Shown: positions 1-43,467, numbered from the stretch's first letter. The stretch: DNA of 64,000 nt from an uncultured Coriobacteriia bacterium (GCA_902475535.1 CABRZR010000001.1:15995-79994), one strand, 5' to 3'. The notes: generated by a model not told the origin, from the letters alone. Program-made: numbers and translations.

Positions 1-3000
1 TAGTAACGGTAGAGGATGAGGCCCTCGTGGACGTTGCCCTTGATGTGCGAGGTGTAGGACACGCCGTTGATGACGATTTCCTCCGTGTACTCATAGCCCT
101 CGAAGCGACTATCGTTGAGACCGTTCCTGTCGAGATTATCGGCGACCACCTCGGCATTATTCTTGCGCATGAACTCCTGGTAGATGAGGTTCTTCACCGT
201 GCCGTCACCTGTGACGCGTACGTGGTAGACCTGATATTCGATATTGTCCTTGGAGTTGTAGTACAGCGTGAGGAGCATCTTGCCGTCAGCCGTGATGACC
301 GCGCGGGCAACCGTGTCGACGCCGCCGCCGATGGAGTCGAACGCCGGATCGCCCGGAACGAGGTAACGGTAGCCGGGAATCTCGATGTTGTCGCCGTTGC
401 GGTAGCTGACGCCGGAGACGTCGAGATCGGCCCAGGCAACCTCGTCGGTGATGCCGTAGTGGACGACGTAGTTGTCGCGAATCCACTGCGGGTCATCCTT
501 GTGGTTGATCGTCGCATCGCCAACCATGTCGACGGTGCCATCCTGCTTGAACGGGAAGAAGTCGCCATCGCCGTCGACACCCCAACGCGTCACGTAGTAC
601 GGCGTGTTGTCGTTGGCGCGCCACACCGCGCGCAGCATGACCTTGGCGTTGGTGGGCATGATGTAGATGACCTTATCGGCATCGATGAAGGTGAACGTGA
701 AGCTCGCCGGGTCGTAGGCGGAAATCACGGCAGTCCACTCGGCGCCGCCATTGGCGATGTAGCCGGTCTTGCCGGCAGCCAGCGTGCGGCACGAGTCCTG
801 CGAGGCCGCGCCCTTGGCGGTGTCCTTGCCGGCGGCCATGAGGCCGTTCTTGTCGATGGCCCAGCCCACGAGCGTGTAGCCCGGACGTTTCACGTCGGCG
901 TTGGTGGGCAGCGTGAAGCTGGACTCGGTGGAGTGCTGCTTGCCGGAGTACTGCGACTCCTTGCCCGGCTCCCAGGTGCCGTCGCCGACGTTGAGGTCGA
1001 GCACGCGATCCTTGAGCGGGAAGTAGTAGACGACGAGGTGCATGCTGCCGTCGCCCGCGATGCGCCACTCGCTCTTGACCGTTGCGCCGGTCACGCCGGA
1101 GCCGTCCTTCTTGGGAACGCTGTCGCTCTTGCCGTTGGCGATGGTGTAGTAGCCGGCCAGAGCACCGTAGGCGTTGGTGTTCCAGGGCTTGGGGCCAGCC
1201 GTGGCACCGGCAGTCGCGAGCTCGTCGGTGACGCCGGTGAAGCGCAGCGGATCGACAGCGGCGAGGTCATTGCCGGCAGCGTCGATCGGCACGAGGTCGC
1301 CGTCGCCGGTGATCTTGTAGCGGTCGACGTAGAAGACGGTATCGGACTTGGCGCGCCAGGTGGCGTAGAGCGTGATGCTCGCATCGGTCGGGGCGAGATA
1401 GAGGGTCTGTCCCCCTATCACCACCGCGGTGAATGCGGCGCCCTTGTCGGAGGTGCGCTTGGTGTTTGCCTTGGCCGCGTCAGCCGCCGCCTGCGAGGCG
1501 AGACCCGTGGAGGTGCCGACGTTGACGGTGGTGGCCGTGGCGGCGCCATCGACCTTCACGTTGTAAGTCGGGACATTGGACCAGCCGGCCAGGTCGTAGC
1601 CCGTGCGATCGGCGGCGGAGGAGATCTCGACGGTCTCGTCGGTGTAGACCTGCATCGTGGGGTCAGCACCCGTGCTCACGCCACTACCGAAGTTGAAGGT
1701 GATGGTGTTGAGCAGCGGCTTGAAGTACAGCACGAGCACCGTCTTGCCGTCGCCGGTGATGATGGCGCGGGCATCGGTGGTGAACGCGGTGGCAACGCCG
1801 TGGAGCGTGACCGTTTCACCGTCGGCGGCGAAGGCGTAACCGGCGAAGCTGAACGCGGAGTCATCGTTGCGGTAGGAGACGCCGGCCTCGGCGGCATCGG
1901 CCCAGGCCTCCTCGTCGGTGATGCCGACGTGCTTCACGACATGACCCGCGTCGGCGGTCGCACTCGTCACGAGCTTGCCGTTGGCATCGCGCACGAGCTT
2001 GCCGTCGGAGGTGACCGCGTAGCGCGTGCCATCGCCGGAAACGACCCAGCGCTCGACAAGGTACTCGGTGTTGTCATTTGCGCGCCAGGTGGCGAACAGC
2101 GTCACGTCACCCGTCGGCATGATGTAAAGGGTCTGTCCCCCATTTACCACGGCGGTGAAGACCTTGCCGGTGATGGCGTTGCGGGTCGTGTCGGCACTGA
2201 TGCTCGTGAAGGCGTTCTGCGACTTGATGCCCTTGAGGTTCGAGATGATCGTGGCGGCATCGACGCTGGTCACGTACTGGCTGTTCGTCCAGCCCTTGAG
2301 CGTGTAGCCGCTACGCGTGACCTCCGTGGTGGGCAGCGTGTAGCTCTGGTCGGCATAGAGCGTGACCTGCGCGGGCGTGGCGCTCAAGTTGGGGATGCTC
2401 GCGTCGCCGATGTAGTACGTGATGGTGTACTGCTTGGGCGCGAAGTAGAGCACGAGCTTGGTGGAGCCGTCGCCGGCAATCTGGAGCGTGGCGATGGTCT
2501 TGAACGTGGTCTGGCCGTTCTTCGCGGTGACGAAGTTGCCCTCGCCCGTGTAGGTGTAGCCGGTGATGCTGAGATTCTGATCGGCGTGATGATACGCGAT
2601 GCTGGCGTCGAAGCCTGCTAGGGCGCTATCGGCAAAAGCAAACTCGTCGGTCGTGCCGATATACTCGATGCGATGGGCGGCATCGGCAGTCGTGCTGCTG
2701 ACGAGCATGCCGTTGGCATCGCGCTCGAGCGTGCCGTCGGCCTTGAGGGCGTAGCGCGTGCCATCGCCGGAGACGGCCCAGCGCTCGACCGTGTACCTCG
2801 TGTCGTTATTCGCATACCAGACGGCATAGAGGGTCTGTCCCCTTGTTGGCATCTTGTAGCCCGGGGTGACGAAGACGTAGGTCTTGCCGTCGGCGGTCGT
2901 GGCGACGGTGATCCAGTTGGCGCCACCATTGGCCGTGTCGTTGCCGGTGATGGCGGCCAGCTGTCCTGCCTTCACCTGCGAGGCGAGGCCCTTGATGTGG

Positions 3001-6000
3001 TCACCCAGACCGGCGTCGGGATTGGTGGTCGACCAGCCCACGAGCGTGTAGCCCGGGCGGCTGATGTTGGCGTTGGTCGGCAGGTCGAAGTTCGACTCGG
3101 TGAGATGCTCGGGGTTCCAGGTGAAGCCGGAGTTCCAGGTACCGCCACTCGTCTCGAGCTGCAGCTGGAGCTTCTGCGCGAAGTAGTTAAGCGTGATGCG
3201 CATGGTGCCGTCAGGCGCGATGGCCTTCGTGGCGGTGCTGGGCTTTGGCGTCGTGCCATCGTAGCCGTAACCGGTGAAGTCGCCGTTGTAGCGCGCGTCA
3301 CCCGCCGTCGTGTTGAACGGTGCGGCCGTGTACTCCTTGTCGGTCATGCCGCGGAAGGTCTCGGTGATGGTGGTCTTGGCGGTGGTGTTGCCCTCCCAGC
3401 GCACGTGATCGACGTAGTAGACCGTGTCGTCGTTGGCGCGCCAGATGGCGTAAAGGGTCTGTCCCCCACTTCCCATCGTGAAGATCTTGAGGAGGTCTTC
3501 GAAGGTGTTCTCGACGTAAGCGTAGGTGTAACCCGCAAGCGAGGTGCCCGTCTTGTCGGCCCTGATGAGCGTCGTGACGCGGATCCAGCTCGGGTCGGCG
3601 CCAGAACCGATGAGCATATCCCAAAAGTCCTGCGAGGCCTGGCCCTTGGCAGTCGCCGTGTCCGGGTTGGTCGACCAGCCCATGAGCGTGTAGCCCGGTC
3701 GGCTCGCAGCCAGGTAACCGAACATCACGTGCTGCGACTCGGTGTCATAGCTGATGGTCTTGACACTGCCGCTGTTGGTGCCGCTCGTATTGATCCAGGT
3801 GCCCATGTTGCCGAGGTCAAGCTTGAGGTCGAAGCTCTTCGGGAGATACCAGAGCGTGAACCTCGCCGTGCCATCGGGGCTGATGTTGCCGTACGCACTG
3901 GTCGAAACCGTCTGGGCGATGTTGCTGGTGCCGATGTAGGTCTCGCTCGCGCCGGCAGCCAGGAAGCGGTAACCCTCGGGAACGGCGATGTTGAGATAGG
4001 TGATGCCGTCCTTGTACTCGGTCTTGTCGGCGTCGAAGCGCACCTCGGTGTCGGCATAACCCTGGTAGGTCACCGTATCGAGCTCGACCTTGTCGCCATG
4101 GCCGGTGAGCTTCCAGCGGTTGACCGTGTAGTCGATGAGTTTGGGCGTCCACACGGCGCGCAGGGTGATATCGCCAGTCGGCGTGAGATAGGTGAAGTTG
4201 GTGCCATCCTTGAAGAAGAGCTTGAGGTAGGTGCCCTTACCGGTGTTCTGACCCTCGAGCCAGGTGACGATCTGCTGGGCCGTGTAACCCATCGCGTCAT
4301 TTACAGGGTCTGTCCCCTTCTTGTCGGAGATGGTCCAACCGAGGAAGTCATAGCCCGGGCGCGTGGGCGCGGGAACGGTCGACAGGTCGAAGCTGTCATC
4401 GGTGTAGTGCTTCTGCGTGATGAAGTTGGTGTTCTCGGTCGCGTCGAGCGTGCCGCCGGTGATGGTGCCGAGCGAGCCGGTCTCGAAGCGAATGGTGTTC
4501 TCGTTGGCGCGGTAGAACAGATAGAAGACCGTCTTGCCGTCAGCGCTGATGGTCTTCACGGCGTAGGTCGTGCCCGTGGCGCTTTCGATCGTGAAGCTCG
4601 CGTTGTTGAGCAGGTAGGTGTAGCCGGCAATGGTGCGCATGTAGCCGCCGATGGTGTCGAGGTCGAAGACGACGTCGGACTTGCCGTTGTTGTAGGTGAC
4701 GCGCCAGGCGGCGTTGGTGGTATCGGAGGCATCGGCGCTCGTGTTGGGCGTGCCGGTGATGAGGGCACCGTTGCTATCGCGACGCACGGTGCCGTCGGGA
4801 TTGAGCGGCGAGAAGGTGCCATCACCGGTGATGAGCCAGTGCTCGACGTAGTAGACGATGTCGCTGCGCGGCGTCCAGACCGCGTAGAGCGTCTTGTCGG
4901 TAACGGGCATGAGGTAGGTCGCGCCATTGAGATAGTAGAGCGGGCGACCGGAGGGGTCTGTCCCCAACGTGCCAAGCCAGGCGATGACGGCTTCGGCCTC
5001 GGCGCCCAGGGCATCGGCGATGTTCTTGACCGTGACGGCCGTGGAATCATCCGCCGAGACGATCTTGCCAGCAGCATCAACGCCGTAGCTGGCGATGGTC
5101 GTCCAACCCTTGAGCACGTAGCCCGGGCGGCTCACGGTGAGCTTCTCGCCATCGGCGGCCGCAGGCAGCTTGAACGTATGATCGGCACGATGCGTGACGT
5201 CGGCTGAAATTCCGGGGTCTGTCCCCCCATTGCCACCAGCGGAGATGGTGCCGTGGGAGCCCGGATCGTAGGTAAGGGTCAGATTCTTGGCGACGTAGTA
5301 GAGCTTGAGGACGAGCGTGCCGTCGGGTGCGACGTAGATACCGCTGGCGAGCATGCCGTCCGTCCACGGGCCCTTGCCGTTGATGGCGGAGATGCTGCCC
5401 AGCGCGTACTCGTAACCCGCGATGGTCCAGGGGTTGTAGGTCGTGTACGTACCCACAACCGCGTCGGTGGGGACAGACCCCATGACGTAGATGTGCGAGT
5501 CGGAGAGCACCGTGCCGTCGGTGTACTCGACACGGATGCCGGTCGGGCTGCTCACGAGCACGCCATCGGCGCCGCGCACGAGGTTGCCGCTCGCGTCGAT
5601 CGCGTAGAGCGTGCCGTCGCCGGAAATGGCCCAGTGCTCGACCGTGTACTTCACGACGAGCGGCTTGTAGTAGATGTAGATGGCCGTCTTGCCCTTGTTG
5701 GTGCCGTCGAAGGCGCCGCCCCACTCGATGAGCACGTTGGCGGCCGTCGTGACCGTCTTGATCGTGCCGTCGGCGGCGGTGTAGGTGTAGGACTGCAGGT
5801 CGGCGATGGCCTCGTAGCCAACATAGCTATTGGCGGTAATCTGGGCGGTCAGGCCCGTCGTGCCGCGGACGATCTCGCCCACGCCATCGGCAACCTTGGT
5901 GGAGCCGATGTAGTACTCGAGCGTGCCGTCGCCGCGCACCTTCACGTGATAGACGACGTAGGCGGTCTCGAGGCCCTGCCAGAGCGGCCTGAGAACAACC

Positions 6001-9000
6001 TCGCCGATGGGCATGGTGTAGGTGAGCTCGGTAACCGTATCCGAGTACATCATCGCATGCTCGACGTCATTGCCGACCATCCAACCCACGAGCTTGTAGC
6101 CCTCACGCGTCAGCTCGTTGGGCTTGGGAAGCGTGATCGTGGCGTCGGCGCCGAAGTGGCGATACCAGGTGTCGGTCTTGCTGGCGAGCGTGCCCTCCTG
6201 CGTCTGCGCGTTGTTGAAGAGGGTGTCGGACCAAGTGCCCTGCGAAGGCTCGAGCGCGAGCGTGAAGTTGCCCGGCGTGTAGAAGAGCTTGAGCACGAGG
6301 CTACCATTACCGGAGATGACGCCGGTGGTGATGGTGCCGGCGTAGGTGCCGTCATAGGTGTAGGCGAAGATCGTGGAGCCATCGAGCGCGGTGGTCGGGT
6401 ACACGTTATCGACGTTGTCGATGGTGTAGTACCAGCCGTTCTTGAAGTACTGGCCCGTGTGGCCGTCCATGTCGCTCTCGGATGCGGTGACGTTGACGTT
6501 GGCATCGGTGAGGCCCTTGTACGGGATGCGCGCGGCAGCCTCGGCTGCGGCGATCTGCTCCGGCGTCAGGTTGCTGCCGTTGATGATGACGAGCTGGTCG
6601 CCAACCTTGACGTCGTTACCGTTTGCATCGACGAGGATGATGTTGCCGTCACCGTCGACACGGTAGCGATTCACGCCGTAATCGACCTCGACGGCCCTGA
6701 AGATGAACACGAGCTTGGTGGTGCCGTCCGCGTTGACGATGGCGTGCGCGATCGTGTTGGTGGGCATGCCGCTGAAGCTCAGGGCCTCCTCGGTGGAAAC
6801 GACCCAGCGATAGCCGGCAAGGCCGAACTCGGTGGTGAGCGAGCCGTCGTAGTTCTCGCCGCTCGTGCCGCTCTGGGCCGGACGCTGTGCGAGCGTATCG
6901 GTGTCCTCGTCGGCCACGCCGTTGTTGTAGATCTTGGTGCCGACGAGCTCCATGGTGCCGTCGCCCTTGACCTTGTAGATGTCGGCCGTATACGTGGTGG
7001 AGCCCGTGGGAGTCCAGACGGCGTACAGCGTCATCGACAGAACGCCGATCTTGAAGGACGCGCCCTGGCCGTAGAAGGTCTTGCCCATGTGGTTGGCGAT
7101 GTCGGCATTGAGGGTCTGTCCCCAATGCGCCGCAAAATCAGGGTCTGTCCCCAACGTGCCAAGCCAGGCGGCGAGGCGCTGGGCCTCGTAGCCCTTGGCG
7201 TCGCTGATGGCCTTGGCACCGGCGGCGTCGGCACCCACGAGGGCGAAGCTGGCGGCATCGGTACCCGTGTAGTGGCTTGCCACGGTCCAACCAACGAGCG
7301 TGTAGCCGTCGCGCTCCACGATCGGGCCCTCGGTGGCCTCAATCGGCAGCGTGAACGTGGACTCGGAGCTGTGGTTCTTCTGGAAGGTGACCGTCGTGGC
7401 CTCGCTACCGGTGTTGTAGACGAGGTTGAGCGTATCGGCCACGTAGAAGAGCTTGAGGAGCAGGGTACCGTCGGCAAGGATGGTGCCCTGGGCGATGGTC
7501 TTGTAGGTCACGCCGTTGATGACCTGCTCGAAGGTCTCGTCATAGGTGTAGCCGATGAAGTTGGGATTCTCGGCAGCCGAGAGGTTGAGATGCGCGTAGG
7601 TGAAGCCGGCCGACGCGCTGATGCCAGCGGGACGATCGACGGAAAGCGTCGAGGAGGTCTTGCCCCAACCCTTCACCTTGTTGGTGGCGGCACCGGTACT
7701 CGTGCCGTCAATCCAGACGGGGACGCTGCTTCCGGCGATGAACTCGGCGTAATCCTTGCCGGCAGCGGCTTCGAAGCCGTTGAAGGGCAGGACCTTGCCA
7801 TCACCAGTGTAGCGATAGAACTCGACGGTGTAGAGCACGTCGATGGGGATGTAGAACTGGATGATCTTCGTCGAGCCATCGCCCGCGATAACGGCGGTCG
7901 GGATGGCGGCATTGGGCCAATCTCCCGCACCCGAGATCGTCGAGGGAACGAACGAGTTGTCGAGCGTGTAGCCCAGCGGGTTGGAGGAGGCGGGCGTGAC
8001 GGAGGTGTCGGTCGTGCCCGTCAGGGTCTTCACGTCAACCTTGGTGAGCAGCTTGCCGTCGGCACTGGCAATCCAGCGCTCGACCGTGTACGTGGTGTTG
8101 GTGTTGGCCGTGTAGTAGAGCTTGAGCACGAGGCTGCCGTTGCCGGCGATGACACCCTGGGCGATGGTCACGTAGGACTGGCCGGGATAGGCGGTCTGGC
8201 CGTTTGCCACGAAGGTGTAGCCGGGATAGGTCTGCGCGATGCCCGTGACCGTCTCGCCGGTGATGCCGGTGAGGTTCTCGGTGAGCTCGACCTTCTCGGT
8301 GATGGTCGTGCCGTCGTTCACGAGCTTGATGTGCTCGACCGTGTAGGCCGTGTTGGTGTTGGCCTGCCACACGGCGATGAGCACGGCGCCGTTAGGCGGC
8401 AGCACGAAGGAGGTACCGCAGGCGAAGTACTGCCTGCCGCCATTGGGATCGGTGCCACCCACGATGGGATTGGCGGCAAGTGCCGCGTTGAGGCTCTCGA
8501 GCCAGGCAACGATGTCGCGCGAGCGCTGGCCCGTCGCATCGGCGATGTTGTAGCGGCTACCGGCGGTGATCTGACCGTTCACGATGTCATAGGTCGTGAT
8601 GGTCGTCCAACCGGCAAGCGTGTAGCCGTCGCGCGTCGCGGAATTGCGACTCGGCACGGTGAGCGTCTTCTCGGTGGGGATGGTGCTATCGACACCCTGC
8701 GTCTTGTCGGCATTCCAGGTGGCGTTGTAGAAGGCCTCGCTGTCGTTCCACTTACCGGCACCGGTGTTGAGCGTGATGCTCTGGGCCGTGGGCTCGTAGT
8801 AGAGCTTCAGGACGAGAGTGCCGTCGGCAAGGACGGTGCCGGTAAGGATCTCGGAAAGGGTCTGTCCCCCAATTGTCGCGCTGAAGCCGGCTTTGTAGGC
8901 GTAGCCGGTGAAGGCGCCATTGGCCGCAGCGTCGAGGGCGACGGCCGTTGCCGGGTCATCGGTGATGCCGTGGAATGTCTCGGTGATGACCTCCTTGAGG

Positions 9001-12000
9001 GTATTGTCGCCGGTGACACGATAATGCTCGACGGTGTAGACGCTGTCGTTGCGCGCCTTCCAGACCGCGTAGAGCGTGACGTTGACAGCGCCGATGGTGT
9101 AGTTGCAGTCGCCGCTCGCGAGGATGAGCGTGATGTCACTGCCGTTGTAGCTGAAGAGCAGGTTGCCGTTGGCGTCGACATGGGTCAGGTCGGCACCGGC
9201 CAGGGCGGCCAGCAGCGCATCGGCAAGCGTGATCGAGGCGGTACCTTTCGTGTTCTTGCCGTCGGGGATGGAGGCCCAGCCGACGAAGTCGTAACCCGGA
9301 CGCTCGACGAGCGTGGAAAGCTTGACCGTGCGGTCGGCCTTGTACTTATCGGCATTGTGCTCCTGGCCAGACCAGGCACCAAAGCTGCCGAGGTCGAGGT
9401 TGAGCGTGACGTCCTGCGCCTCGTAGAAGATCTTGAGGATCGTGGAGCCGTCGGAGGCGATGTCGGTCTTGTAGAGCGACCTCTGGCCCCTCAGGTTGAA
9501 GTCGTCCTTGCGCAGGTAGCCATCGAAGGTGGCGGCAAGGTCAGCGGCGCTTACCTCGACCGGACCGTCGACCAGGCCCTGATGCGTCTCCTCCTTGGCA
9601 AGTACGAAGGTCTCGTTGCCCGTGAACTTGAACCACTGGACCTTGTAGTCGATCATCTGCGCCTCGTAGTAGAGCTTGAGGACCGTGGTGCCGTCGGCGT
9701 TGATGTTGAGGGAGGCGATGGCGTTGTAGACCTTGCCGTCCTTATCGGTGACCGTGTCGGCAAGCTGGTAGAACGTGGTGCCGAAGCGGTTCACGTCATC
9801 GGCCGGGACACCGTCGATGATGCCCGTGGAGACCAGGCCCGCCTTGGCAAGCGTGTCGGTCATGCCCACATACTCGACGGTGCTGTCGAGAACCACGGTG
9901 CCGTCGCCACGATGCTTGTAGTACTCGACCGTGTACTTGGTGTCATTGCGGGGCAGCCACACCGGATAGAGCGTGGTGGCGCCGCGCGGCATCGTGAAGG
10001 TCGTGGTGAAGAACTTGCCACCCAGCGACGCAAGCCACGTCTGCAGGTCGATGGCCGTCTGGCCACCGGCAACGCCGATGCGGCTATCGCCGTCGCTGCC
10101 CTCGGCAAAGGAACCGGCATCGGTGCCCGTGTAGAAGCCAACCGTGGTCCAACCGGCCAGGGTGTAGCCGGGACGACGCAGGTTGGTGCCCGTGGGAAGT
10201 GTCACGGTCTCGTTGGGCATGTACATGGCAGACGGATCGACGTCGTTGTACCAGCTGCCCACGGTGCTGCCATCGGCACCCGTACCGGGGTCGAAGGTGA
10301 GCTGCGAGCGAACCGCGTAGTAGTAGAGCGTGAGCACGAGGCTGTTGTCGGCGGCAATGGAGCCCTGGGCCACGGTCGTGACCTTGGTCTCGGCGGCATC
10401 ACCCAGGCGGGTCATGTTGCCATGGGGCAGGAACTCGAAGCCGGGGATGGCGACGTTGTCGTTGGCATTGGTGTTGGGGCTGGACGCGACCTCCTCGGGG
10501 GTAGCGGCAGCATTTGCCATGGCATCGGCCTTGCCGTTGGTGTGCACGATGAAGTGCGGCGTGGCAAAGGCCGGCAGGTGGTAGGTGACCCCATCCACGG
10601 TGGAGACGATGCAGCCATTGCCGTCGATGGAGTTGATGCCGAAGGTCGTGTCAATGGCACCAGCCGCATCAATGGGCAGAACCGCGCCGTTGGCGGCGAT
10701 GGACCAGTAACGGTACTGGACCGTATGGATGGTCACGTCCTCGTAGACGTCCTCCATCACCATCTGGCCATCCTTGTAGATGATATTGCCGTTCTCATCG
10801 CGAGCGGGCTGCTGGACGGCATCGCCATTCTCGTCGAGAACCTGACGATGCTCGACGGTCGTGATGATGTACTCGTTGCCATCCGGGTCGAGCCACGCAA
10901 CCGGGTTGCCGTCGGCATCGCGCTGGACGAGCCTCCCGTCTTCGGTGGGCTCGAGCGCGATGGCGAAGTTGAGGTTGCCATTCTCGTCAACGGCGACGAG
11001 CTTGCCGTCACCAGTGGCAGCCCAGCGGACGACACGGTACTCGGTGCTGTTGGTGGGCTCGTAGTAGAGCTTGAGGTGCAGTGCACCGGTGGTGTCTCCC
11101 GCCCTGTTGCCGGACCAACCCGTGACGACACCGGAAGTGTCGCTCGTGTAGGGAGTGCCACCGACCTCGATCGAGGCAACGTAGCGATAGCCCGTCGGGA
11201 CGTTGTATTCCCTCTGGTCATCGGTCACCATGACGGTTTCGCCGGTGGTAGCCGTGAAGATCGTGGAATCGTAGAACTCGATGGTGCCATCACCGCGCAC
11301 CTTGTAGTAGTCGATGAAGTAATCGGCATCGCCCGGTGTCCAGACGGCGTAGAGCGTCTGGGCTGCGTTGCCGGTGACGAAGCTGGCGCCAGGAGCGTAC
11401 GTGGTGCCAAGACCGTCGGCCTGGGTGTTCCATCCGCCAAAGACATAGCCAAAGCGGTAGAGCGTGGTCGCATCAGGCAGCGTCACCGTCGTGCCGGTGC
11501 GCGGCGCGGGCTTGGGCGACTGGTCGGCAATGACCCAGCCGGCGTTGCCCTTGGCCTCGTCGCCGGCGGCGTTAACGTCGTAGATGAGGTCGTTTTGCTG
11601 CGCATCGAAGACGAGCGTGAGCTTGAGTGCGCCGCCCGCACCGATGATGCCGGTCGGCGTCGAGGTATACGTCTTGCCGTCGATGACGACACTGAAGGTG
11701 GCGTTATAGGCATAACCGGTGATGGCGTCGGCCGCGATCTTGGCAAGGCAGTTGTTGTAGTAGACGAGCGCCGTGTCGGTGCCAGCCTGGTCGACGTAGA
11801 TACGCGTGTTGGCATAACCCTTGAACAGCAGCACGTTGGTGGCAGCGCCATCCGGATCGGCCGGCAGAGACTCGTCGTAGACGGCTACGCCGGTGACGCT
11901 CGTCGCGTTGGCCTTGAAGGCGTTGATGGGCTCGATGAGGCCGGTGCCCGTGTAGCGCAGGAACTCGACCGTGTACTCGGTGTCGGCGGTGACGTCGAAG

Positions 12001-33000: not shown

Positions 33001-36000
33001 GGGCCTTCGGGGGCAAACGGGTAGATGGCCGCAAGGTTGCTGGAACTATCATACCAGCGACCATCCTCACGTAGCCACTTACCATCAGCCACGCCATGAT
33101 CGGCAAGGCTGTTGGTGATGCCCGTGCCGGTGAGTGCGGACTTGAGGCCAAGGCGCAGCTTGGCGATGCTCTTGTTGTTGAGGAACATGCCCGTGATCGA
33201 AGGCGCGGTGAGCATGTCCCACCCGGAGACATCGACGGCGAGCAGTGCCGTGTCACCATTGAACATGTTTTCAAGCGTTGCACCTGCAACTACCCAAGTG
33301 GCAATACCCTCGGCATTCACCAGGTCGAGGCAGGAAGCGAACATCGAGGAGAAGTCCGTGACCTTGGAGACGTTCCAGCAATCGCGCTCCACTCCGTCAA
33401 TGGTGGCCGTATGCGGCTTGAGACGGTCGAGGGAAACAATCTTGGTATTGTAGAACATGCGGACCATGCTCGTAGCAGCAGAGGTATCCCAATCCATGAC
33501 CTGCGTGAGATTGGCGAGCGCCTGGTTATGAGCGAAGGCACCCGAGAAGTTTGTCACGGAGGAGGTGTTCCAACCCGAAATGCCGCTGAGAGGCAGTGCG
33601 GTGTTGCCCTCGAAAATCGATGCGATGGACGTGATGGCCGAAACGTCCCAATTTTCAAGACCGGTGAGCGTAGTAAGCTTGGCGCTTGCAGTCGTCTTGA
33701 AGAACATCTTCTCGAGACTCGTGGCCGTGGACGAGATCCTCAGCTCGCTCGCGTCGATATTGGCAAGCTCGAGGTAGTCGGCAAACCAGCTCGCGGGGTT
33801 TTGCAGGGTGAGGCCATCGCTCGTCGTGACCTGGGTGCATATGGCCCTGATGTCGAGGTTAGGCCAGGTGAGCCAAGGCTGTTGAGCGGCGGTTTCGGTA
33901 ACGATTTTGTCCTTGTAGTTGTCGCGCGGGCCATGCAGGTCGAGCACCTTGGTGTCGCGATGGTATTCCCACCACGCCTTGAGGTTGGAGTCGAAGCGAC
34001 CGCCCACCTCGTTGAGCTTCCACTGATAAGTGCCTGCCATCTCTGCAGGGCCGATACCCGGACGCTCTCGATTTGATTTGTTGATCTCATCCCAGCTGCC
34101 GATCCAGTAGGGATCAGGCGCGGAGTTCTTCCAGATGCCGGTCATGGTGAGCACGACGGTGGCGTTCCAACCGGAGCTCGTATAGCTACCATCCGTGTGG
34201 AAACGCACGTACATGTATTGCGCGGTGGTTGTATAGCTTGGAGCCCCTCCGGTGCTGCCAGACCAACGGTTGAGATAATAATTGCCGTTGGAATCCCATA
34301 CGGAGACCCAGTCATAACCACGCTCGGTATAAATACCGTTATTAAAGGTCACGGAAATGGAGCTCGTCTTGCCGTTGCCATAGGTCCAGGTATGGTCGTA
34401 GCCATTATAGTAGCCGGGGTTGCCAAACTTCTGGTCGCCTTCGCGTTGCTGGCCGTTCGAAGCGAGCTGGTAGGTCAGGGTGCGGGTGGGTTGGTCGATG
34501 CCCTTACCATCGTTGCAATAGGCATCGTAGCCAGGGCCAAAGGTGACCTCGTCCAGATACTCGTCACGATAGAACATCTGGACGACGGTATCCGTGGCGT
34601 CGATGGTCCAGTTGCCCATGTCAACCTTGAGCAGCTTGCGCATGCCGCGGAACATGTAGTTGAAGTTGGTGGCAGAGCTCGTGTCCCAACTGCCCGTACC
34701 GGTGACGTACTGCAGTTGATTGACTCCGTCGAACATGCATTCAAAAGTGGTGACCTTGGAGACATCCCAGTTTGCCATGGAGGGCAGGGTGACAAGCTTG
34801 CTGCAGCCCTGGAACATGCTTGACACGTTCGTGAGAACGGGAGTGTTCCAAGTGGCGGTTCCAGCAATGGTGGTGAGCGCGGTGTTGTTTCGGAATGTCG
34901 AGGCGAAGCTCGTAACATCTTTGGTGTCGAGTCCGGCGCCGTCAAAGTTGGTGAGGCCTGTATGGCCATCAAACCAGCCGCCGAGAGACTTGGGGGCAAG
35001 ACCGCCCGTGGTGTGAACCGTCAAGATGGAGGTGGTGTAGTTGGCAACGACCCTCCTCCAGGGCAAGTTTGCTGCAGTCGAGTCCGTCTCGTCGATGGAC
35101 TTATCTGCATCCGCGCCGCCGTCTGCTCCCATGTGCAGTGCCTTCGTGGCCTTGACGTAATACCACCAGGCATTTTGGTTGCTCATGAAACGGCCGCCCA
35201 GGCGCGTGTCATCCCAAATATACGTGATCGTGCCCGCTGGTGGTGCGCGGCCTTGGTCATTTCCGGAATAGCGATCCGCGAGTCGCGAGGTGCAATCGAA
35301 CCAGATCTCGTCGCCCTCGTCATTGGTGTAGAGCCACATGCCAGTCGTGGCCTCGAGGCCCGGCAGGCTGTTGGAAAGGCCGGAATCACCCAGGCGCACA
35401 CCCTGGCCCAGGATGAGCTTGCGCAGGCCCTTGCAGTTTTGCAGCAGGTTGGCATGGGTGCCGTTTTCCATCACCCAGCTGTGGATGTCGAGCTCGGTGA
35501 TCTTGGCAAGGCCGGCAAAGGCATTGTCGAAGCTGGTCACGTTGATGGTGTTCCACTCCCCCATGCCAGTGACGCTCGTCATGTTGATTGCGCCGTTATA
35601 GAGGTTGCGCAGCGAGATGAGCTTCTCGGTCGTGGCAGAGTCGGTGGGCCAGGTGACCGAGACAAGGGCGGTGCAGCCGTCGAAGGTGCTTTCCATGGAC
35701 GTGACCAGCGAAAGGTCCAGACCACGGCCATCGAATTTGGTGAGCTGCGTGTAGCCTTTGAACCAGCTCTCCAGTGTGTGCGGCGAGATGGTGCCGAGCT
35801 CCGGCGAGGAGACAAAGGAGGTCACGCGCGTATCAGGATCGTTGTTCGGGTCTTCGATGAGCGAGCGCCAGGGCATGGTCACGGAACCATCGGCAGCCTC
35901 GAACTCGGTGACCTCGACGGAAAGCGTGGGGTCATCAACGCCAACGGAAAGCTGGCCCTTGTTGTACTCCCACCAGACGTTCGTGTTCTCGAAACGGCCG

Positions 36001-39000
36001 CGCATGTAGCCTTCGAGGAACTTGTAGGTGACGGTGTAGTAGTTGTTGTGGGTCTCGGGATAACGTGCTGCGAGGTCTCCCGTGTTACCGATGAGTGAAT
36101 CGGCGAGGTTCTCGTACTCGTGCTCCTCGTCAACGAGCTCGGCCCAGGTGCCGTTCTTGGGAAGGTGATCGGCGAGGGTGTTGTCGAAGCCCGAGTCCTT
36201 GGCCGGGCCATTGAGCACGACGCCGTTGGAAACCTTGAGGTAGATGAGGTCTCGAAGGTTCTTGAACATGTCGGTAAAGATCGCATCGGACGGCATGTAC
36301 CAGTGCGAATCGTCAACCGCGAGGTGCAGGCGGGAGAGCCTGACGTCGTTTGCGAACATGCCCTCGAAGGTGCGAGCCGCATTGACCGTCCACCCGGCAA
36401 TTGCCGTAAGGGTGGTGAGGGAGCGGAGCTCGGAGAAGGAATAGGCGAAGTCCGTGACCCTGCTCACGCCCCAGTCGGTGATGTTGTTGATGGTCGTGAG
36501 GTTAACGTCGTTGTAGAAGAGCTTGTGCAAGCTCGTGCAATAGGCGGGGTTGAGGCCCGTGCCATCAAAGGTCTTGAGGTTTGAGAGCTCCGCAAACCAT
36601 CCGGTCATGTTGAGCGGAGCAATGCTGTTTTGGGTGGCGACGGAGGTGATCTTGGTCTTGCCGTTGATGGGCGCGAGCCATGGCAAGGTCAAACTGCTCG
36701 TCGGGGCAAGGGTGCCATCTGCCAGCGTGTACTGCATCGTGCCATCATATTCGGAGACGGTCTTATCGGGAGCGTTTTGCTCGACGCCAATGGTAAGCAC
36801 GCCGTTGACGAAGGTCCACCAGGCGTAGAGGTTGCTCGGGAAGCGCCCACGTACCCCAGAGGCCCACGTATAGGTGTGGGTGGTAGAGATGATCTGTGTC
36901 AGAGTCTTGGTCACACCCGACTCGGCGCCAAAGTTGAAGGTTGCGCTCTTATCAGCGCCATAGCGGGCGATGAGCTGCTGGGTGCAATCAAACCAGGGGG
37001 TATCGGCGCTGTTGGAATCCATGGTCCAGTGGCCGGCAGTGGTCACGCGAGAAGAAAGCGGAGTGACACCGTCAGCTCCGTTGCCAAAGCCCGTCCCCTC
37101 GAGCACGGCAACCCTGTCGAGGGTAATCGAGCTGATGGAGGGCAGATTGGCGAGCATGAGGTCGTGAGGCGTGGAGGCGGTCCAGTTCCAGCCGGTGAGG
37201 TTGAGCGTGGCAAGGGCCGTGTCCCCGGCAAAGGTGCTGGAAAGCGTGCCGGTGGGTGACAGCAGAACTTGCGAGATGTCCATGCCGGAAGCATTGATGT
37301 TGGTGACATCGGTATAACCGGCAAACCAGAACGCAAGATTCATGGGCGCGAGCCTGCCGTTAATGATGATGGAGGTGACGTAGCGGCCGGTCCACGTGTT
37401 ATTGCTGCCGGTGGTATGAGCGCGAATGATACCCGCCTTGTGCCAGGGCAGCACGCGCGAAGTGGCCGAAGTCTCGAACTCCGTCACGATCTTGTTGCTG
37501 CCGCTATCGGTGCCAAGCGTGAGGGTGTGGCTGTTTGCATCGTAACTCCACCAGGCATTGTCGTTGCTGGGGAAGCGGCCGCGCAGGGCGCTCGACCAGG
37601 TATAGGTGATGTCATCGGTTATCGCGTTGCCGACGCCATCCTTGGCAGCGGGATAGCGGCGGGCGACGTCACCCGTGGAACCGAACCAGGGGGAGCCGGC
37701 GGAAGTGTAGGCCCAAGAGCCGTTGGTCGGCAGGTGGGCAGCGAGCGTATCGTCAAAGCCAGTGCCTTCGAAGATGATCTGCGGGCCAACCGTAATCGAC
37801 GTAAGCGCGTTGAGGCCAACGAGCATTTCGGTGCGCGTGGCCGTGTCCTTCATGTTCCAACCGGAGATATCAAGCGAGGTAAGGGCGCTGTTGTTCTTGA
37901 ACGCCGTGTCGTACTTGGTGATGTTGGTGGTATCCCACTCATCGATGCCCGTAATGGTCCTGAGTTTGGCATCGCCTTCGAAGAGTCCTTCGATGCTTAT
38001 AGTATTAGTGGTGATGAAGCCAACGCCGTTGAAATCCACGAGATTGGGGTAGTTGGCAAACCAGAAATTAAGGTTGGCCGGCGCGACCCTCTTATCGGTG
38101 CTGGTCACGACGCGCGTAACCACGTCTTTGGAACCAATGGCCGCAAGCCAGGGCAACACCTTGGAAGCAGCACCGGTCTCGGTCTCGGTGACGACGAGAT
38201 TGCCGGCCTGGTTGTCCGATCCGATGGTGAGCACGCCATCCGCAAAGGTCCACCACGTGTTGTCGTTGTCGAAACGACCTGCCATGACACCCGCTTTCCA
38301 GATGTAGGCCATCTTTCCAGCGGCAGCGCCCTCGGCGTTCTTTCCGGCGGGATAGCGCTTTGCGAAGTTCGAGGTCGAGCCGAACCAGGTCGAGCTGCTG
38401 GCACCGTTAGGAGTTCCTTCCCAAGATCCCTGGGTAACCTTAAGACCCTGCAGGTCGCTGTTGAAACTCGTCCCCTCGAGGATGACTCCTGCACCCACCG
38501 TAAAGACACCTTGTCCAAAAGCGGCAACGGTGCCGAGCTTGCCGCAAGAAGCGAACATGTCGGTTCTGGTGGAAGACGCATCCATGGACCAGCCGGAGAT
38601 ATCGAGCGTCACCAGGTTGGCGCACCCGGCAAACATGTTGGCGAAATCGGTGACTCCCGTGACGTTCCAGGAGGCGCCGTCGACGAACATGAGCAGGGAG
38701 CTTGCGTTCCTGAACATCCCATTAGTATTAGTGAGCGCCGCGGTGTTCCATCCGGAAACACCGGAAAGCTGCGTAAGGCTGGCAGCGCCTTCGAACATGG
38801 AGACGAAGTTCTCGATATGGGAGACGTCCCAATTCTCGAGACCCGTCACCGTGCTGAGACGCTCGGTGCTGTAGAAGAGCTGGTACAGCGAAGTGTTGCC
38901 GGCAAGATCAAGACCGGCACCATCGAAGCTCGTCAGGCGATGGTAGTTCTTGAACCAGGCCGCGAAGTCGACGGGGTTGAAGTTCTTGCCGGGGTTACCA

Positions 39001-42000
39001 TCAGCCTCGACGGTGACCATGTTGATGAGAACGGCGTAGTTCTCGCCAATGGCCTTGAGCCAGGGAACGCTTGCCGCGTTCTCGGTCACGCTGCGATTGA
39101 TGACCGCCGAGTTGGGATTGGGGCCCGTCCCCCTGTACTCGTCGGTACCCAAGGTGAGTGCTCCGGCGGTGCGGTCGAACTTCCACCAGGCGTTGTCGTT
39201 ACTGTCGAAGCGACCGCGCAGGTTGTTGCTCGACCAGGTGTAGGTCATTGCGCCGGGAACGATGGAGTTACCAGCGTAGCGGTTCTTGAGGTTTTCGGTC
39301 GTGCCAAACCAAATGCCATCGGAGCAATCCCAGCTACCGGCAGAGGCGATGCGGGTCTTCATGAGCTCGGCATCGTCAAGACCGGTACCCTCGAGAATCA
39401 CGGTCTGGCAGATCTTGAAGGTCGCGATAGCTTCGAGGTAGGCAAACATATTAGTGCGAACCGCGCTCTGCGGCATGTTCCATCCGGAGATGTCGAGAGT
39501 AACGACGAAGTTGTCGCCCTCAAACATGCCCTCGAAGGTCTGGGCAGCCGTGACGTTCCAACGAGCCAGGGCGTCGATGGTGACGAGGTCCTTCGTGTTG
39601 CGGAACATGTGCGCGAAGTTCGTAACGTGGGAGGTGTCCCAGTCACCGATGGTGGGCTGCACAGTCATGAGGTTGCAGCCATCGAAGAGGCCCTCGAGCG
39701 AGGTGATCGTGCTGGTGTTCCATGCGGCAACGCCCGAGAGCGAGTTGAGTGCGTTGCAGTCCTTGAAGAGGTTGGCGAGCGAATGGGTTTCGGAAAGGTC
39801 GACGCCGGCACCGTTGAAGCTAACCAGCGATGCGTATCCGGCAAACCATCCATCGGTTACGGTGCCGTTGCCACCAAGGTTCTGCGGCTTGACCCGAGTG
39901 GGGTTGCTCGCATCTCCCGTGGCGCGGAAGACAACGTAGTTGACCTGATCCTTGCGGATGACCCCATTCCAGGGAAGGTTGGATGCATCCTGCGTCACTA
40001 TAGTATTAGTGGCCCCCGGATCCGCACCAATCGTGATGGTACCGTTAGTATAAATCCAGTAGACGCTGTCGTTTCCATCGAAGCGACCGGAGCGCATGGA
40101 CGGATCCCAGATATATGTGAAGGAACCTGTAGCATCTCCCTCAATCGAAGAGGAGACGGGATAGCGCGCGGCGAGGTTTTCACTGGAACCAAACCAAGCG
40201 CTGTCTTCGGTGGCCCAAGAACCATTTGCCGTTCCATGCTCGATGAGAGTTTCTATACCGGAACCTGTAAGAATCACGTCGCCACTCAAGAGGAGACGGC
40301 GGAGCGACGAGTTGCCGGAGAACATGTTGTCGCGGGGAGCGGTCGGCTGCATGACCCAACCCGTGAGGTTCATGCTCGTGACTCCAGCATCCATGAAGAG
40401 GAACGCGAAGCTCGTCGCAAACTCAACATTCATTCCCGTGCCATCGAAGTTGGTCATCGAAACGTAGCTCTTGAACCAGTTCTCGAAATTCACGGGAGCG
40501 ATTCCATTGCGCGTAACAACGGAACGAACGGCAAACGATCCGGTGGGGACCGCTCCCGTGGTAAGCCAGGGAACATTTGTCGCCGACTCGGTCACCTTCT
40601 TGTCGGCGGCTCCGATTGCGTTGCCGCGCGAGTCAACGGAGTCGGCACCAATGGTAAGAATGCCATCGGAAGTTCCGCTGAACATCCACCAAGCATTGTC
40701 ATTCTCGAAGCGGCCACCGATCTGATTCGGATGCCACGTATATATTAGTGCGCCCGAAGCACTCGAGGGGCGTTGGGCAGCTGTCTTGGTGGCGGAATAA
40801 CGAGTGGCAAGATTGCCCGTCGTGCCAAACCACACGCCATCCGAGCAGTCCCAGGTTCCAGCCCTTGGTTCGCGCTTCGAGAACGAATCGGTAAGTCCGG
40901 TACCTGTGAGAATTACGGTCTCCGTTACGGTGAGGGTAGTAAGCGTCGTGCAGTTCGTGAACATGTTGTCACGAGGAGCACTTGCGACCGCATCCATGTT
41001 CCAACCGGAGATGTCGATTGCGGAGAGGAAGGTGTCGCCGCGGAAAAGCGAATCGAACGAAGTGCAGTGGGAGACGTCGATTCCCGTACCGTCGAAGCTG
41101 ATGAGATTTGCGTAGTTTGCAAACCAGGATGCGAGAGTGGTCGGCGCGATGTTTCCGAAAGTCGTGATTGCCTTGATGGCGGCAGCCCCAACCGAAGGAA
41201 GTCAGGGAAGCTGCTCGGCCGTTTCGTCGACGGACTTATCAACGGCACCTGTTGCATCGATGGTCAGCGTGCTCGAGGTCTTGTCGAAGGACCAGAGCAC
41301 ATTCGCGTTGGATGCGAAGCCGGACTCATAGTAGAAATTGTAAGCATGAATTCCGGAAGGCGCGCCGGATCCAGAGTAGCGACTCACGAGATTGGCAGTC
41401 GTTCCGGACCATGCATCCGACTTCCACGTGCCGGCGTTGTCGCCACGGCTTGCCGTGTTACCCAAACCGGTACCATTAAGATTCACATTCGGATTGAGGG
41501 TTATCTTCTCAATCGCTCCCATGTTCGAAAGCATGTTGGTTTTGGTAGCCGATCCGACAGTCCAGTTCGTAAAATCGAGTTCCTTCAGATTTGAGCAACC
41601 TACAAACATATTCATGAAGGTTGTTGCCTTGGAAGTGTTCCACGATCCAATACCCTGAACAGTTTCAAGATTTGTGCAACCATTAAACATGTTTGCGAAG
41701 GTGGTCACATTTGACGTGTTCAATGAATCCGCTTGGAATGAGACGAGTGATGTGTATCCGCTAAACCAATTGGATAGGTTTGTGGGCGCAATGGGGCCCG
41801 TGATTATGACCTGGAATATGTCGGTCGTTGTAAACGAGCTCTTCCAGGGAAGCGAAGACCCGTACTCAGTGACAGCCATATCGCCGTTATCGAGCACGGG
41901 ATGGATGTTGAGCGTCATGGTTCGCGTATCGACGCTCCACGAAATATTCGAGTTGCTGGCAAAGAATCCGCTGTTGTCAGCCTGAGGGCTAATAGACGAA

Positions 42001-42554
42001 CTCGCCGCCAGAAGCGGTGAGTCCAAAGCGTCCTGCATGATCTGATCAACGCCGTCTAGGCCCGATGATGATTCGTCCGGCTTGAACAAATCGCGTACTG
42101 GGCCGTAGACCTCCCCTGACGTTTCCGTCGGCACCGCATTTTCTGCTGGTGCCGTTTGTTCAGGGGCAGATTCCGAGCGAGCACTCTCAGCGGGAAGGGC
42201 GACTGCCTCGGGGGCTGCCTTGGGGGCAGCTGCAGGAGTAGTCACCGCCGCGGATCCGGCCGAAGCCGGCATGGGGATTGCGGCTGCCGCGGATCGCGGA
42301 GCAGCCACGGGCTCTGCAGCGCTGGAAGAAGCCGCCACGGGCTGCGGTGCCGCAGCCGGAGCCATGACGACGACGGAGCCATTGGAGCCGGCACCCGCCG
42401 AAGCGATGTTCTCGGAGTTGTAGGAATTCTCGTCAGCGAGAGCAGGGGTGGCGAACGACGTAAGTACTAATATCGCGCCCGCGAAAAAAACAAGGCAAAG
42501 CGTGACGAGGGCGCGAAGAGCCCTTCGCTGCATGTCGCTGCGAGGCAGGTCCAT
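1..42554 (-). CDS. Giant secreted cell-surface adhesin-like protein. Contains DUF285/BspA-type LRR supermodules, Flg_new repeats and MucBP-like repeats. The 3' end lies beyond the window. One in-frame TGA at 41202..41204.
   Basis: The only minus ORF in the track whose low coordinate is 0 mod 3 is 41202..42839. So the minus frame in that phase has no stop from 41201 down to base 3 (13,733 codons). It is absent from the track only because it leaves the window without a stop. All large + ORFs from 27 to 41594 start at 0 mod 3 and are made of GNN/CNN codons, which marks them as antisense shadows. Hand translation is coherent along the whole length. The start is ATG at 42554 (MDLPRSDMQRR...) or 42533 (MQRRALRAL...). 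Confidence 0.85.
1403..8869. repeat. Eleven exact intragenic copies of the 12-mer GGGTCTGTCCCC. Ten are direct, with + strand starts at 1403, 2129, 2831, 3455, 4306, 4954, 5215, 7112, 7141 and 8858. One is inverted (GGGGACAGACCC at 5469..5480).
   Basis: Read directly from the sequence. The + strand shadow ORFs show the copies as GLSP or VCP. Confidence 0.9.
15060..24000 (-). repeat. Array of Listeria-Bacteroides repeat (Flg_new-type) domains
   Basis: Repeats of ~75-90 aa end in (T/V)LYAxW and have a GYxFxGW core. One example is YTVKYYENGGFGALADDRATYGVYLQLAVGGTLDGIFRDGYRFTGWNTKADGTGTQYGPGARVNDFEGSNGSIITLYAQW. Confidence 0.7.
25320..25716 (-). other. Ricin-type beta-trefoil lectin-like insert
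   Basis: Hand translation reads DFIDGRYYIHYFNHSTASLLKYIGDGSLTTDRNDTNTLWDIRHAGTTSNGTKYYTLRNVGSGAYITYG...ALALDLWYGDQSRGLSQWHRNDAQDKWGW. It contains QxW-like motifs and is a locally AT-richer segment. Confidence 0.4.
29661..30137 (-). other. Lower-GC insert resembling a carbohydrate-binding or jelly-roll module
   Basis: Hand translation reads ...SYWFASSKIDHSNASVPGFGSWSGSASSFSVNGNAITIHGISGWSFMYVPVSLDAGTYYTYFNYTMPTYGTFFEVTNNLD...VYLVLYIDTVSDGNTATLTINDFMVCKN. It interrupts the supermodule periodicity. The fold call is by pattern only. Confidence 0.3.
34131..34480 (-). other. CUB-like beta-sandwich insert inside one supermodule
   Basis: Hand translation reads FGNPGYYNGYDHTWTYGNGKTSSISVTFNNGIYTERGYDWVSVWDSNGNYYLNRWSGSTG...AQYMYVRFHTDGSYTSSGWNATVV. 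This resembles the CUB pattern (SPxYP..Y...W.I....I.L.F..F..E...DYV.V.DG.....F.SD....GF.A). No HMM was run. Confidence 0.4.
41202..41204 (-). other. In-frame TGA replacing a Trp codon that is conserved in the paralogous modules
   Basis: The minus strand reads gag cag ctt ccc TGA ctt cct tcg gtt. Paralogous modules have (L/V)PW at this point. Confidence 0.9.
41202..42554 (-). CDS. N-terminal ORF of the giant gene as literally terminated by TGA. It covers the signal peptide, the Ala/Pro/Ser-rich linker and the first LRR module.
   Basis: ORF track entry 41202..42839. The AT-rich upstream part of that entry is unlikely to be coding. A signal peptide-like segment MQRRALRALVTLCLVFFAGAILVLTSFATPALA is followed by DENSYNSEN and AAAPQPVAASSSAAEPVAAP low complexity. 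Then come DUF285-type repeats (NVTTFANMFNGCTNLETVQGIGSWNTSKATTFMNMFVGCSNLKELDFTNW). Confidence 0.7.
   Translation of the reverse strand: MDLPRSDMQRRALRALVTLCLVFFAGAILVLTSFATPALADENSYNSENIASAGAGSNGSVVVMAPAAAPQPVAASSSAAEPVAAPRSAAAAIPMPASAGSAAVTTPAAAPKAAPEAVALPAESARSESAPEQTAPAENAVPTETSGEVYGPVRDLFKPDESSSGLDGVDQIMQDALDSPLLAASSSISPQADNSGFFASNSNISWSVDTRTMTLNIHPVLDNGDMAVTEYGSSLPWKSSFTTTDIFQVIITGPIAPTNLSNWFSGYTSLVSFQADSLNTSNVTTFANMFNGCTNLETVQGIGSWNTSKATTFMNMFVGCSNLKELDFTNWTVGSATKTNMLSNMGAIEKITLNPNVNLNGTGLGNTASRGDNAGTWKSDAWSGTTANLVSRYSGSGAPSGIHAYNFYYESGFASNANVLWSFDKTSSTLTIDATGAVDKSVDETAEQLP
42435..42533 (-). other. Predicted Sec signal peptide of the giant protein
   Basis: It has a basic n-region (RRALR), a hydrophobic core (LVTLCLVFFAGAILVLTSF) and an A-L-A motif before DENSY. 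No predictor was run. Confidence 0.65.
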
Positions 42555-43433: not shown

Positions 43434-43467
43434 GGGTCTGTCCCCTTATTACTAGGGGTCTGTCCCC
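43434..43467. promoter_or_regulatory. Tandem pair of GGGTCTGTCCCCTTATT (43434 and 43456, 22-bp spacing) in the upstream region of the giant gene
   Basis: The sequence is gagGGTCTGTCCCCTTATTactagGGGTCTGTCCCCTTATTgcc. It is non-coding and lies 880 bp upstream of ATG 42554. Its function is unknown. Confidence 0.6.

Follow-up and report, generated by a model that had tools for sequence, protein, structure and literature searches.

A 45-kb gene for a probable giant fibrillar adhesin, interrupted by a nonsense mutation, in an uncultured human-gut Coriobacteriaceae species

The 64,000-base stretch of DNA analysed here (GCA_902475535.1, CABRZR010000001.1:15995-79994; ~60% GC; hereafter "the window") comes from an uncultured human-gut Coriobacteriaceae species and is dominated by one giant minus-strand gene, which starts at position 42,554 and leaves the window at its left end. 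Within the window, the giant frame consists of a 450-codon open reading frame (ORF; 42,554-41,205), a stop codon and at least 13,733 further open codons (Table 1). Followed to its end on contigs of the same species, the gene measures 14,993 codons, or 45 kb. It thus occupies ~2% of a ~2.2-Mb genome, ~30 kb from dnaA. Its product is probably a sortase-anchored surface fibre, and the stop at codon 451 is a nonsense mutation within it. Residues and codons are counted throughout from the ATG at 42,554.

Table 1. Positions of the giant gene's parts and of adjoining features in the window
Feature	Position	Strand	Basis or remark
Open continuation of the giant frame	1..41201	-	13,733 codons; public gene calls give 14,474 aa for the post-stop part
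Distal stalk, residues ~9144-14184, continuing beyond the window	3..15125	-	In-house hidden Markov models (HMMs)
Antisense shadow ORFs, not genes	27..41594	+	Codon-aligned reverse frame
Array of ~25 Flg_new/Flg_new_2 (InlB B-repeat type) domains, residues ~6356-9163	15066..23489	-	Pfam, TIGR02543, in-house HMM map
Head, 21 divergent supermodules, residues ~200-6090	24285..41954	-	Pfam, NCBIfam, motif map, alignment A4
Possible ricin-B-like insert, residues ~5615-5800	25155..25712	-	Suggestive match, under cut-off
Insert of ~150 residues, head module 13, residues ~4150-4320	29595..30107	-	Insertion in alignment A4
CUB-like insert, head module 10, residues ~2700-2860	33975..34457	-	Pfam CUB (PF00431)
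Premature stop TGA, codon 451	41202..41204	-	CCC TGG CTT to CCC TGA CTT, Trp of the LPW motif
Upstream ORF, 450 codons and TGA	41202..42554	-	Signal peptide, linker, first PARCEL/DUF285 module; Pfam DUF285 E=6.5e-11
Ala/Pro/Ser-rich low-complexity linker, residues ~41-200	41955..42434	-	Translation
Predicted Sec-type signal peptide, residues 1-40	42435..42554	-	MDLPRSDMQRRALRALVTLCLVFFAGAILVLTSFATPALA/DENS
Translation start region	42552..42586	-	ATG 42554-42552 is the start in public gene calls
Non-coding region, 1.6 kb, between the giant gene and the divergent WYL-domain pair	42555..44157		Sequence

The giant frame and the protein it encodes

Translating the minus frame whose codons occupy positions 3k..3k+2 revealed no stop from 41,201 down to base 3, in agreement with the first-pass annotation of this DNA, which had counted 13,733 sense codons there. 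From position-specific base composition, the 14,184 codons from 42,554 to 3 should contain ~202 stops, against one observed, and the probability that 13,733 codons have none is ~3e-86. The remaining two minus frames contain 228 and 336 stops. The same annotation had described one uninterrupted frame of more than 42.5 kb (~14,180 codon positions) from 42,554; this part has to be corrected, as the in-frame TGA at codon 451 interrupts it.

The plus strand of the same segment carries a series of fourteen large ORFs, reaching 15.8 kb, which had been interpreted as codon-aligned antisense of a minus-strand gene. Our analysis agrees: stops in the antisense frame come from just 28 sense codons (TTA 2, CTA 8, TCA 18), because these three codons are rare when the G+C content of third codon positions (GC3) is 0.82, and it is the minus frame, not the plus strand, that carries the domain matches and the excess of synonymous changes. 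A related metagenome-assembled genome (MAG; contig L019, GCA_002350085.1, DEDS01000003.1) provides a further example of shadow ORFs misleading annotation. At positions 1-9745, this contig encodes a homologue of the giant gene on its plus strand, at least 4,980 codons long and with its true frame shifted by three N gaps, and the public gene calls are minus-strand shadow ORFs (1,717 aa, 967 aa and others), all without a Pfam match. In general, giant genes of high GC3 throw long antisense shadow ORFs, and a single stop splits such genes into misleading "genes".

An alternative in-frame start, TTG at 42,575-42,573, lies six nucleotides past an AGGAG (42,586-42,582); its product has no exact database record, whereas that of the ATG is recorded. 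The first 40 residues have the basic n-region, hydrophobic core and A-L-A site expected of a signal peptide, and the Ala/Pro-rich linker follows. Both had been proposed before and can be read directly from the translation.

The head is built of modules that each comprise a beta cap (GRF..NAWW..LTIG..LPW), a variable number of ~25-residue PARCEL/DUF285 leucine-rich repeat (LRR) turns, and a C-cap (G.W...WFG.T..L..RY...Y.W). PF03382 matches the head at E-values down to 2.3e-81 per 1000-aa segment (42-270 bits; cut-off 25), and TIGR02167 at E-values down to 5.5e-38 (up to 128 bits; cut-off 30). An earlier count of about 20 DUF285 supermodules was therefore close to the 21 LPW-bearing modules found here. 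One module was modelled confidently by AlphaFold2 (AF2), with a predicted local distance difference test score (pLDDT) of 92 and a predicted template modelling score (pTM) of 0.89. The best Foldseek matches of this model in the PDB were LRR proteins (4h09, 4oju and TLR8), all non-significant (E of at least 0.08). Lectin-like inserts had also been expected in the head. The CUB-like insert exceeded the cut-off when scanned in isolation (23.0 bits against 21.4, E=1.1e-4) but scored 19.0 bits, below the cut-off, inside a 1000-aa segment. The ricin-type match was at most suggestive, with 20.2 bits against a cut-off of 25.6 for RicinB_lectin_2 (PF14200; E=0.001). For the insert in module 13, Pfam returned nothing better than E=0.18.

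The remainder of the protein in the window is a stalk of small beta domains. Its Flg_new repeats, as had been anticipated, scored above the curated cut-offs for PF09479 (down to E=2.1e-48, 162.7 bits; cut-off 27), PF18998 (down to E=1.6e-14, 54 bits; cut-off 23.6) and TIGR02543 (E=3e-25, 88 bits; cut-off 20.95). The distal stalk contains ~29 copies of a ~105-aa beta domain, singly or in runs of two or three, in alternation with Flg_new domains enlarged by a ~40-aa insert that includes a helix. In all, the protein has ~43 Flg_new-type domains. The ~105-aa domain matches no Pfam family, and Pfam detects just Flg_new in this region. An AF2 model of one stalk unit, likewise confident (pLDDT 86.7, pTM 0.82), had no match in the PDB at E≤1e-3. 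Weak fold matches were found to MUB (3i57), YwfG (7yl4), the InlB B-repeat and pilins, those to MUB and YwfG being non-significant (E of at least 0.025, template modelling score of at most 0.25). This faint resemblance is what is left of the MucBP-like repeats that had been suggested: PF06458 was absent at E≤0.01 from every segment and at E≤1 from the isolated stalk unit. The stalk type is rare: a search of 1.84e9 representatives gave 98 relatives, of which 12 reached E≤1e-30 and the longest listed measured ~3,430 aa.

The C-terminus lies outside the window. Scanning the last 400 window residues against metagenome contigs retrieved three conspecific contigs (L027, L028 and L029; 94-99% aa identity), which continue the protein past window base 1 by 809 residues in L027 and L029 and by 798 in L028. 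Adding 809 to the 14,184 codons in the window gives 14,993, the same length as the single gene call on contig L003, an intact allele described below. In all three contigs the protein ends in ...YGVPRTGDDAASGM, followed by ~20 hydrophobic residues and a terminal ARRRKSANEK. This constitutes a sorting signal with a variant LPXTG motif (VPRTG), a hydrophobic stretch and an RRRK tail, and a leftward extension thus recovered the LPXTG-type anchor that had been predicted. The nearest homologues have comparable ends: LPQTG precedes a membrane segment in P0212, a protein from a JGI metagenome, and IPQTA does so in P0211 from Olsenella sp. RUG161. Scanning GTDB with the conserved C-terminal domain of these two proteins (alignment A1) returned the Olsenella sp. 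RUG161 locus and unrelated weak matches, with this species not among them, and window bases 1-40 had no exact DNA match in GTDB genomes.

Small in-frame length polymorphisms occur among the alleles (L014, L028, L032, L034, L035 and L045), with totals of 14,986-14,997 codons. For example, L028 has 11 residues fewer in a duplicated EGTDP... stretch near the C-terminus, and the downstream part in L014 is 7 residues shorter. On L027, an IS200-like Y1 transposase gene (14845-15642; PF01797, E=1.1e-5) lies ~1.2 kb past the giant gene's stop and is followed by moeA and a trigger-factor gene; a sortase gene is not adjacent.

The stop at codon 451

The stop falls inside the first head module (...DETAEQLP, stop, LPSVG...). 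Trp occupies this position in all other head modules (for example NVPWL, NLPWN and SVPWL); 21 copies of the motif are present, and its P-W pair is one of just eight columns that are invariant across 17 of 17 aligned modules (alignment A4). To compare alleles, we used public human-gut metagenome contigs retrieved by exact-protein look-up of the neighbouring WYL gene. Contig L002 is identical to the window across 21,074 nt and is annotated with products of 450 aa and 14,474 aa. Contig L003 differs at three of 21,074 nt (99.986% identity), one of which makes codon 451 TGG, and is annotated with a single 14,993-aa product. A more distant contig, L001 (1.4% diverged), likewise has TGG at codon 451 but carries TAG in place of TGG at codon 1,296. 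The exact 450-aa product from the ATG start is recorded on seven contigs, each at least 99.87% identical to the window. All seven derive from several runs of the faecal-transplant data set PRJEB12357 (the study of Li et al., with three donors, five recipients and a time series), and so does L003. Near-identical TGG and TGA alleles therefore occur inside one faecal-transplant data set, and their dynamics can be tested with existing reads. A 25-mer spanning the TGA/TGG site had no exact match in JGI metagenomes.

Because the Trp column is invariant, a near-identical allele has TGG and the TGA is recorded on seven contigs, the codon-451 stop is a G-to-A nonsense mutation in one gene, and not a gene boundary, a recoding event or a one-off error. 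Public gene calls, with their separate products of 450 aa and 14,474 aa, could be taken to describe two genuine genes, one for a small secreted LRR protein and one for a giant protein. We regard this as highly improbable: the stop lies well inside a structural module and strikes an invariant residue, both near-identical and diverged strains read through it with TGG, and the post-stop part has neither a signal peptide nor a start of its own, such that gene callers choose a Met 68 codons further on. It is less credible still that TGA has been reassigned to Trp, as in genetic code 4. The TGA does stand at a Trp position, but TGA terminates five of 16 neighbouring genes, whose Pfam matches extend to the C-terminus, TGG occurs at 407 codons of the giant frame and TGA at one, and the GC content is ~60%. 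TGA is a genuine, ordinary stop in this organism.

We also considered the stop to be leaky, with a near-cognate tRNA-Trp restoring Trp and yielding functional full-length protein at a reduced level, so that the mutation would act as a dimmer and not as an off switch. The stop lies exactly at a Trp position in the context CCC TGA C, with Pro before and C after, and Pro-UGA-C terminates poorly in work on E. coli; moreover, the 41-kb downstream frame is untouched. However, an untouched frame is equally expected from a recent mutation, and other lineages have TAG at other Trp codons and, in one case, at a Gln codon, so that the sites are not conserved and nothing looks programmed. No read-through signal was found, and the window encodes no suppressor tRNA, its sole tRNAs being Glu-TTC, Ser-CGA and Ser-GGA. 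Overall, we consider a dimmer of this kind unlikely.

An artefact of sequencing or assembly, affecting either the stop or the entire giant frame, would be a natural concern, given that the data are short-read metagenome assemblies of a repetitive gene, that one contig (L026) is demonstrably chimeric and that the related-species MAG is broken by N gaps. Several observations make it very improbable. The identical TGA appears on seven contigs from several runs, and the internal repeats, only 25-45% identical at the amino-acid level, are too divergent to collapse. Intact alleles are present in at least five assemblies, namely L003 and four independent assemblies from other projects (L032, L034, L035 and L045), which give 14,986, 14,989, 14,996 and 14,997 codons. 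This reproducible length argues against a mis-assembled concatenation.

Recurrent lesions and selection across strains

The interruption of the gene is not confined to the window strain. The 450-aa product belongs to a 52-member cluster at 90% identity; eight of the 15 members listed end just before a codon that is Trp in the window, although Trp makes up 2.9% of residues (binomial P = 2.5e-9). At the DNA level, we verified seven single nonsense alleles, distributed over different strain lineages and with Trp codons affected in six: W451 (CCC TGG to TGA) in the window, W568 (ACC TGG to TGA) in L052 and L053, W1296 (TCC TGG to TAG) in L001, W1668 (GCC TGG to TAG) in L051, W2569 (ACC TGG to TAG) in L017 and L018, W3797 (CGC TGG to TAG) in L054, and Q14789 (CAG to TAG) in L026. 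Since the lesion-bearing strains are 1.4-5% diverged from the window, the nonsense events are independent. More truncations, on contigs long enough for the whole gene, end at 3,103 aa (L041) and 6,126 aa (L031). Each gene-spanning contig carries exactly one lesion (450 + 14,474 aa, 567 + 14,361 aa and 1,667 + 13,297 aa), and the frame after the lesion is open in each lineage; the products encoded downstream measure 14,361 aa, 13,297 aa and at least 10,698 aa.

Two apparent variants were set aside. The in-frame stop in L019 was rejected as lesion evidence, as the break lies among frame-shifting N gaps. L026 (OIBI01000702.1) was rejected as a structural variant, since the contig is chimeric, its two parts meeting at a short stretch that both share; of its differences, we retained the CAG-to-TAG change alone. 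Its positions 1-4382 (thyX, tmk, an mltG-like gene and the start of a U32 peptidase gene) are unrelated to the window, and positions 4383-12907 are the giant gene's stalk, joined in frame at ...AAEAGV..., so that gene callers would report a fake 1,330-aa fusion.

Comparison between strains revealed 100 synonymous and 23 non-synonymous codon differences in the head, a ratio of non-synonymous to synonymous polymorphism (pN/pS) of ~0.07, and a pN/pS of 0.13-0.15 in the stalk. Purifying selection thus acts on both sides of the codon-451 stop. These values bear on the idea that the gene is an old, decaying pseudogene without function in the species, as the in-frame stop here and the lesions in many other assemblies might suggest. 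With one lesion per full-length contig in ~15,000 codons, intact alleles in at least five assemblies and a pN/pS of 0.07-0.15, we judge it very unlikely, because at a synonymous divergence of 5-17% neutral decay would give many stops and frameshifts. The simplest reading is that long-lived lineages need the gene, and that single-hit losses are frequent because the target is huge, reach consensus frequency in individual guts and do not persist.

The preponderance of Trp codons among the lesions does not call for a special mechanism, as, of the 1,129 single transitions that would create a stop in the gene, 814 are G-to-A changes in TGG. The sequence context is more uneven. Five of the six verified Trp events occurred in CCTGG, compared with 81 of all 407 TGG codons (20%; P = 0.0016), and the excess persists when two unverified events are added (five of eight, P = 0.010). 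The CCTGG events struck both G positions, creating TAG three times and TGA twice. This excess may hint at deamination hot spots at methylated cytosines of CCWGG (Dcm-type) sites; no methyltransferase gene was seen in the window.

From these patterns one can construct a contingency locus, in which point mutation, rather than a dedicated phase-variation device, would tune the dosage of the surface fibre in the gut population. The 407 TGG codons, and especially the 81 in CCTGG, would be hot spots of deamination at which the 15,000-residue adhesin is frequently switched off, with host IgA, phage or cost as the selective force. UGA alleles such as that of the window might stay partly on, as read-through by tRNA-Trp in the weak Pro-UGA-C context would restore the native sequence. 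We hold such a role to be rather doubtful, slightly more so than the dimmer discussed above.

The region upstream of the giant gene was inspected for regulatory elements. An invertible promoter was rejected, as the 1.9-kb region is collinear in 24 of 24 contigs compared, without inversion. Rfam returned tRNAs only, and no Rfam family, riboswitch or other, in the upstream region; no match to the sigma-70 consensus was found, and terminator-like matches were at chance level. A 35-nt imperfect, AT-rich inverted repeat (42985-43090; 77% complementary, 36-nt spacer), ~430-535 nt upstream of the giant gene's start, could be an operator. Beyond the non-coding region, at 44158-46138 on the plus strand, lie two tandem, slightly overlapping WYL + WCX genes (357 and 338 aa), a PafB/PafC-like pair divergent from the giant gene. 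Toward the origin-proximal end (61600-64000), GC and GC3 drop sharply, GC from the ~0.60 of the window to 0.45; GC3 is 0.46 in the ParB gene, 0.41 in ParA and 0.31 in RsmG, compared with 0.70-0.84 in other genes.

The proposed adhesin and its relation to known systems

Taken together, the evidence is best explained by one gene for a sortase-anchored giant fibrillar adhesin, which in the window strain is null or strongly hypomorphic, a recent knock-out among many independent ones. We assign this explanation a probability of roughly three in four. In this model, the Sec signal peptide would export the chain, and a sortase would link the protein to peptidoglycan through the C-terminal VPRTG signal, hydrophobic stretch and RRRK tail. 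A long stalk or spacer of ~70 small beta domains, of the Flg_new and the unclassified type, would present a distal head of ~6,000 residues with its 21 PARCEL/DUF285 LRR modules and lectin-like inserts. The binding targets of the head would be glycans or proteins of mucus, of host cells or of other microbes. In the window strain, the G-to-A change at Trp-451 would cause ribosomes to release an unanchored 450-residue N-terminal fragment, and the remaining 14,542 codons would not be translated, or at most at a low level through UGA read-through.

Several points weigh against this explanation or temper it. The adhesin role is deduced from domain types and architecture. No NCBIfam anchor model matches the VPRTG end, a variant motif, and no sortase gene lies within 7.5 kb downstream or 21 kb upstream of the giant gene. 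All the assemblies are of the short-read metagenomic kind discussed above. Finally, "null" may be too strong a word: as Pro-UGA-C is a poor terminator and tRNA-Trp would restore the native residue, some full-length product is possibly left over.

If the explanation holds, ~2% of the genome of a common uncultured human-gut actinobacterium encodes one fibre, which is probably the cell's main contact organ, and the gene gives work on the attachment of gut Coriobacteriaceae a specific object. Moreover, long-term purifying selection combined with repeated recent knock-outs is the pattern to be expected if selection within the host acts against a surface structure that is costly or immunogenic.

Homology searches with the first 1,000 and last 1,000 aa listed no close relative, and every listed match was shorter than ~1,750 aa. 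Near-identical proteins of 2,568-14,997 aa exist in the searched collection yet went unlisted, so that giant proteins are effectively invisible to such searches. The suggestion that the protein would rank among the largest bacterial proteins holds in part. The intact 14,993-aa allele in L003 establishes that it is very large, and as such it joins more than 41,000 proteins longer than 5,000 aa in UniProtKB. It is not a record, as the predicted proteins described for Firmicutes and Actinobacteria can exceed 30,000 aa and those for Omnitrophota reach 85,804 aa.

The overall layout is that of the Gram-positive fibrillar adhesins (surveyed in PMC8286594), with which the protein shares a signal peptide, a distal putative binding region, a tandem-domain stalk and a C-terminal sorting signal. 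Among these, the 33-kb ebh gene of S. aureus offers a parallel for the lesions: a frameshift splits it into ebhA and ebhB in Mu50 and N315, and it is truncated in some CC30 genomes (PMC3868527). In both cases a giant adhesin gene is broken in some strains and intact in others. The gene described here is ~1.4 times longer than ebh, and its anchor motif is VPRTG. Unlike in these adhesins, the head consists of 21 PARCEL-LRR modules instead of a single binding domain, and the stalk combines Flg_new with the second beta domain, in contrast to the helical repeats of Ebh.

The individual parts also have counterparts. The head carries, above cut-offs, the same ~25-residue repeat as the surface-targeted BspA-family leucine-rich repeat proteins (PARCEL/DUF285/TIGR02167; Roske et al. 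2010, PMC2996958). The PARCEL relatives listed in our search are at most ~1,750 aa long and at most ~25% identical over long stretches, whereas the present protein joins a stalk of ~9,000 residues to 21 supermodules whose GRF..WW..LPW cap is invariant. The ~43 Flg_new-type domains recall the Listeria InlB B-repeat/Flg_new proteins, and the InlB B-repeat structure is a weak fold match; in the present protein, however, the distal Flg_new domains contain the ~40-residue helix-containing insert and alternate with a second, non-Pfam domain. The Mub/MucBP proteins of lactobacilli are likewise LPXTG proteins of gut bacteria with small beta domains in long arrays; the stalk differs from them in having no PF06458 match and only non-significant similarity of fold.

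A very large gene near the replication origin, encoding an extracellular protein with a proposed role in cell-surface contact, is a feature shared with the giant genes of Omnitrophota and other phyla (bioRxiv 10.1101/2023.11.21.568195) and with Giant1-5 of Apilactobacillus kunkeei (PMC12863079). The Omnitrophota giants contain many transmembrane regions together with SecA-like and enzymatic domains (bioRxiv 10.1101/2023.11.21.568195), whereas the protein described here is a purely repetitive, adhesin-type chain with one signal peptide and one anchor. The fibrillar-adhesin design is thus known; the novelty lies in the joining of a rare stalk unit to 21 capped PARCEL supermodules, in the clade that hosts the gene and in the recurrence of knock-outs.

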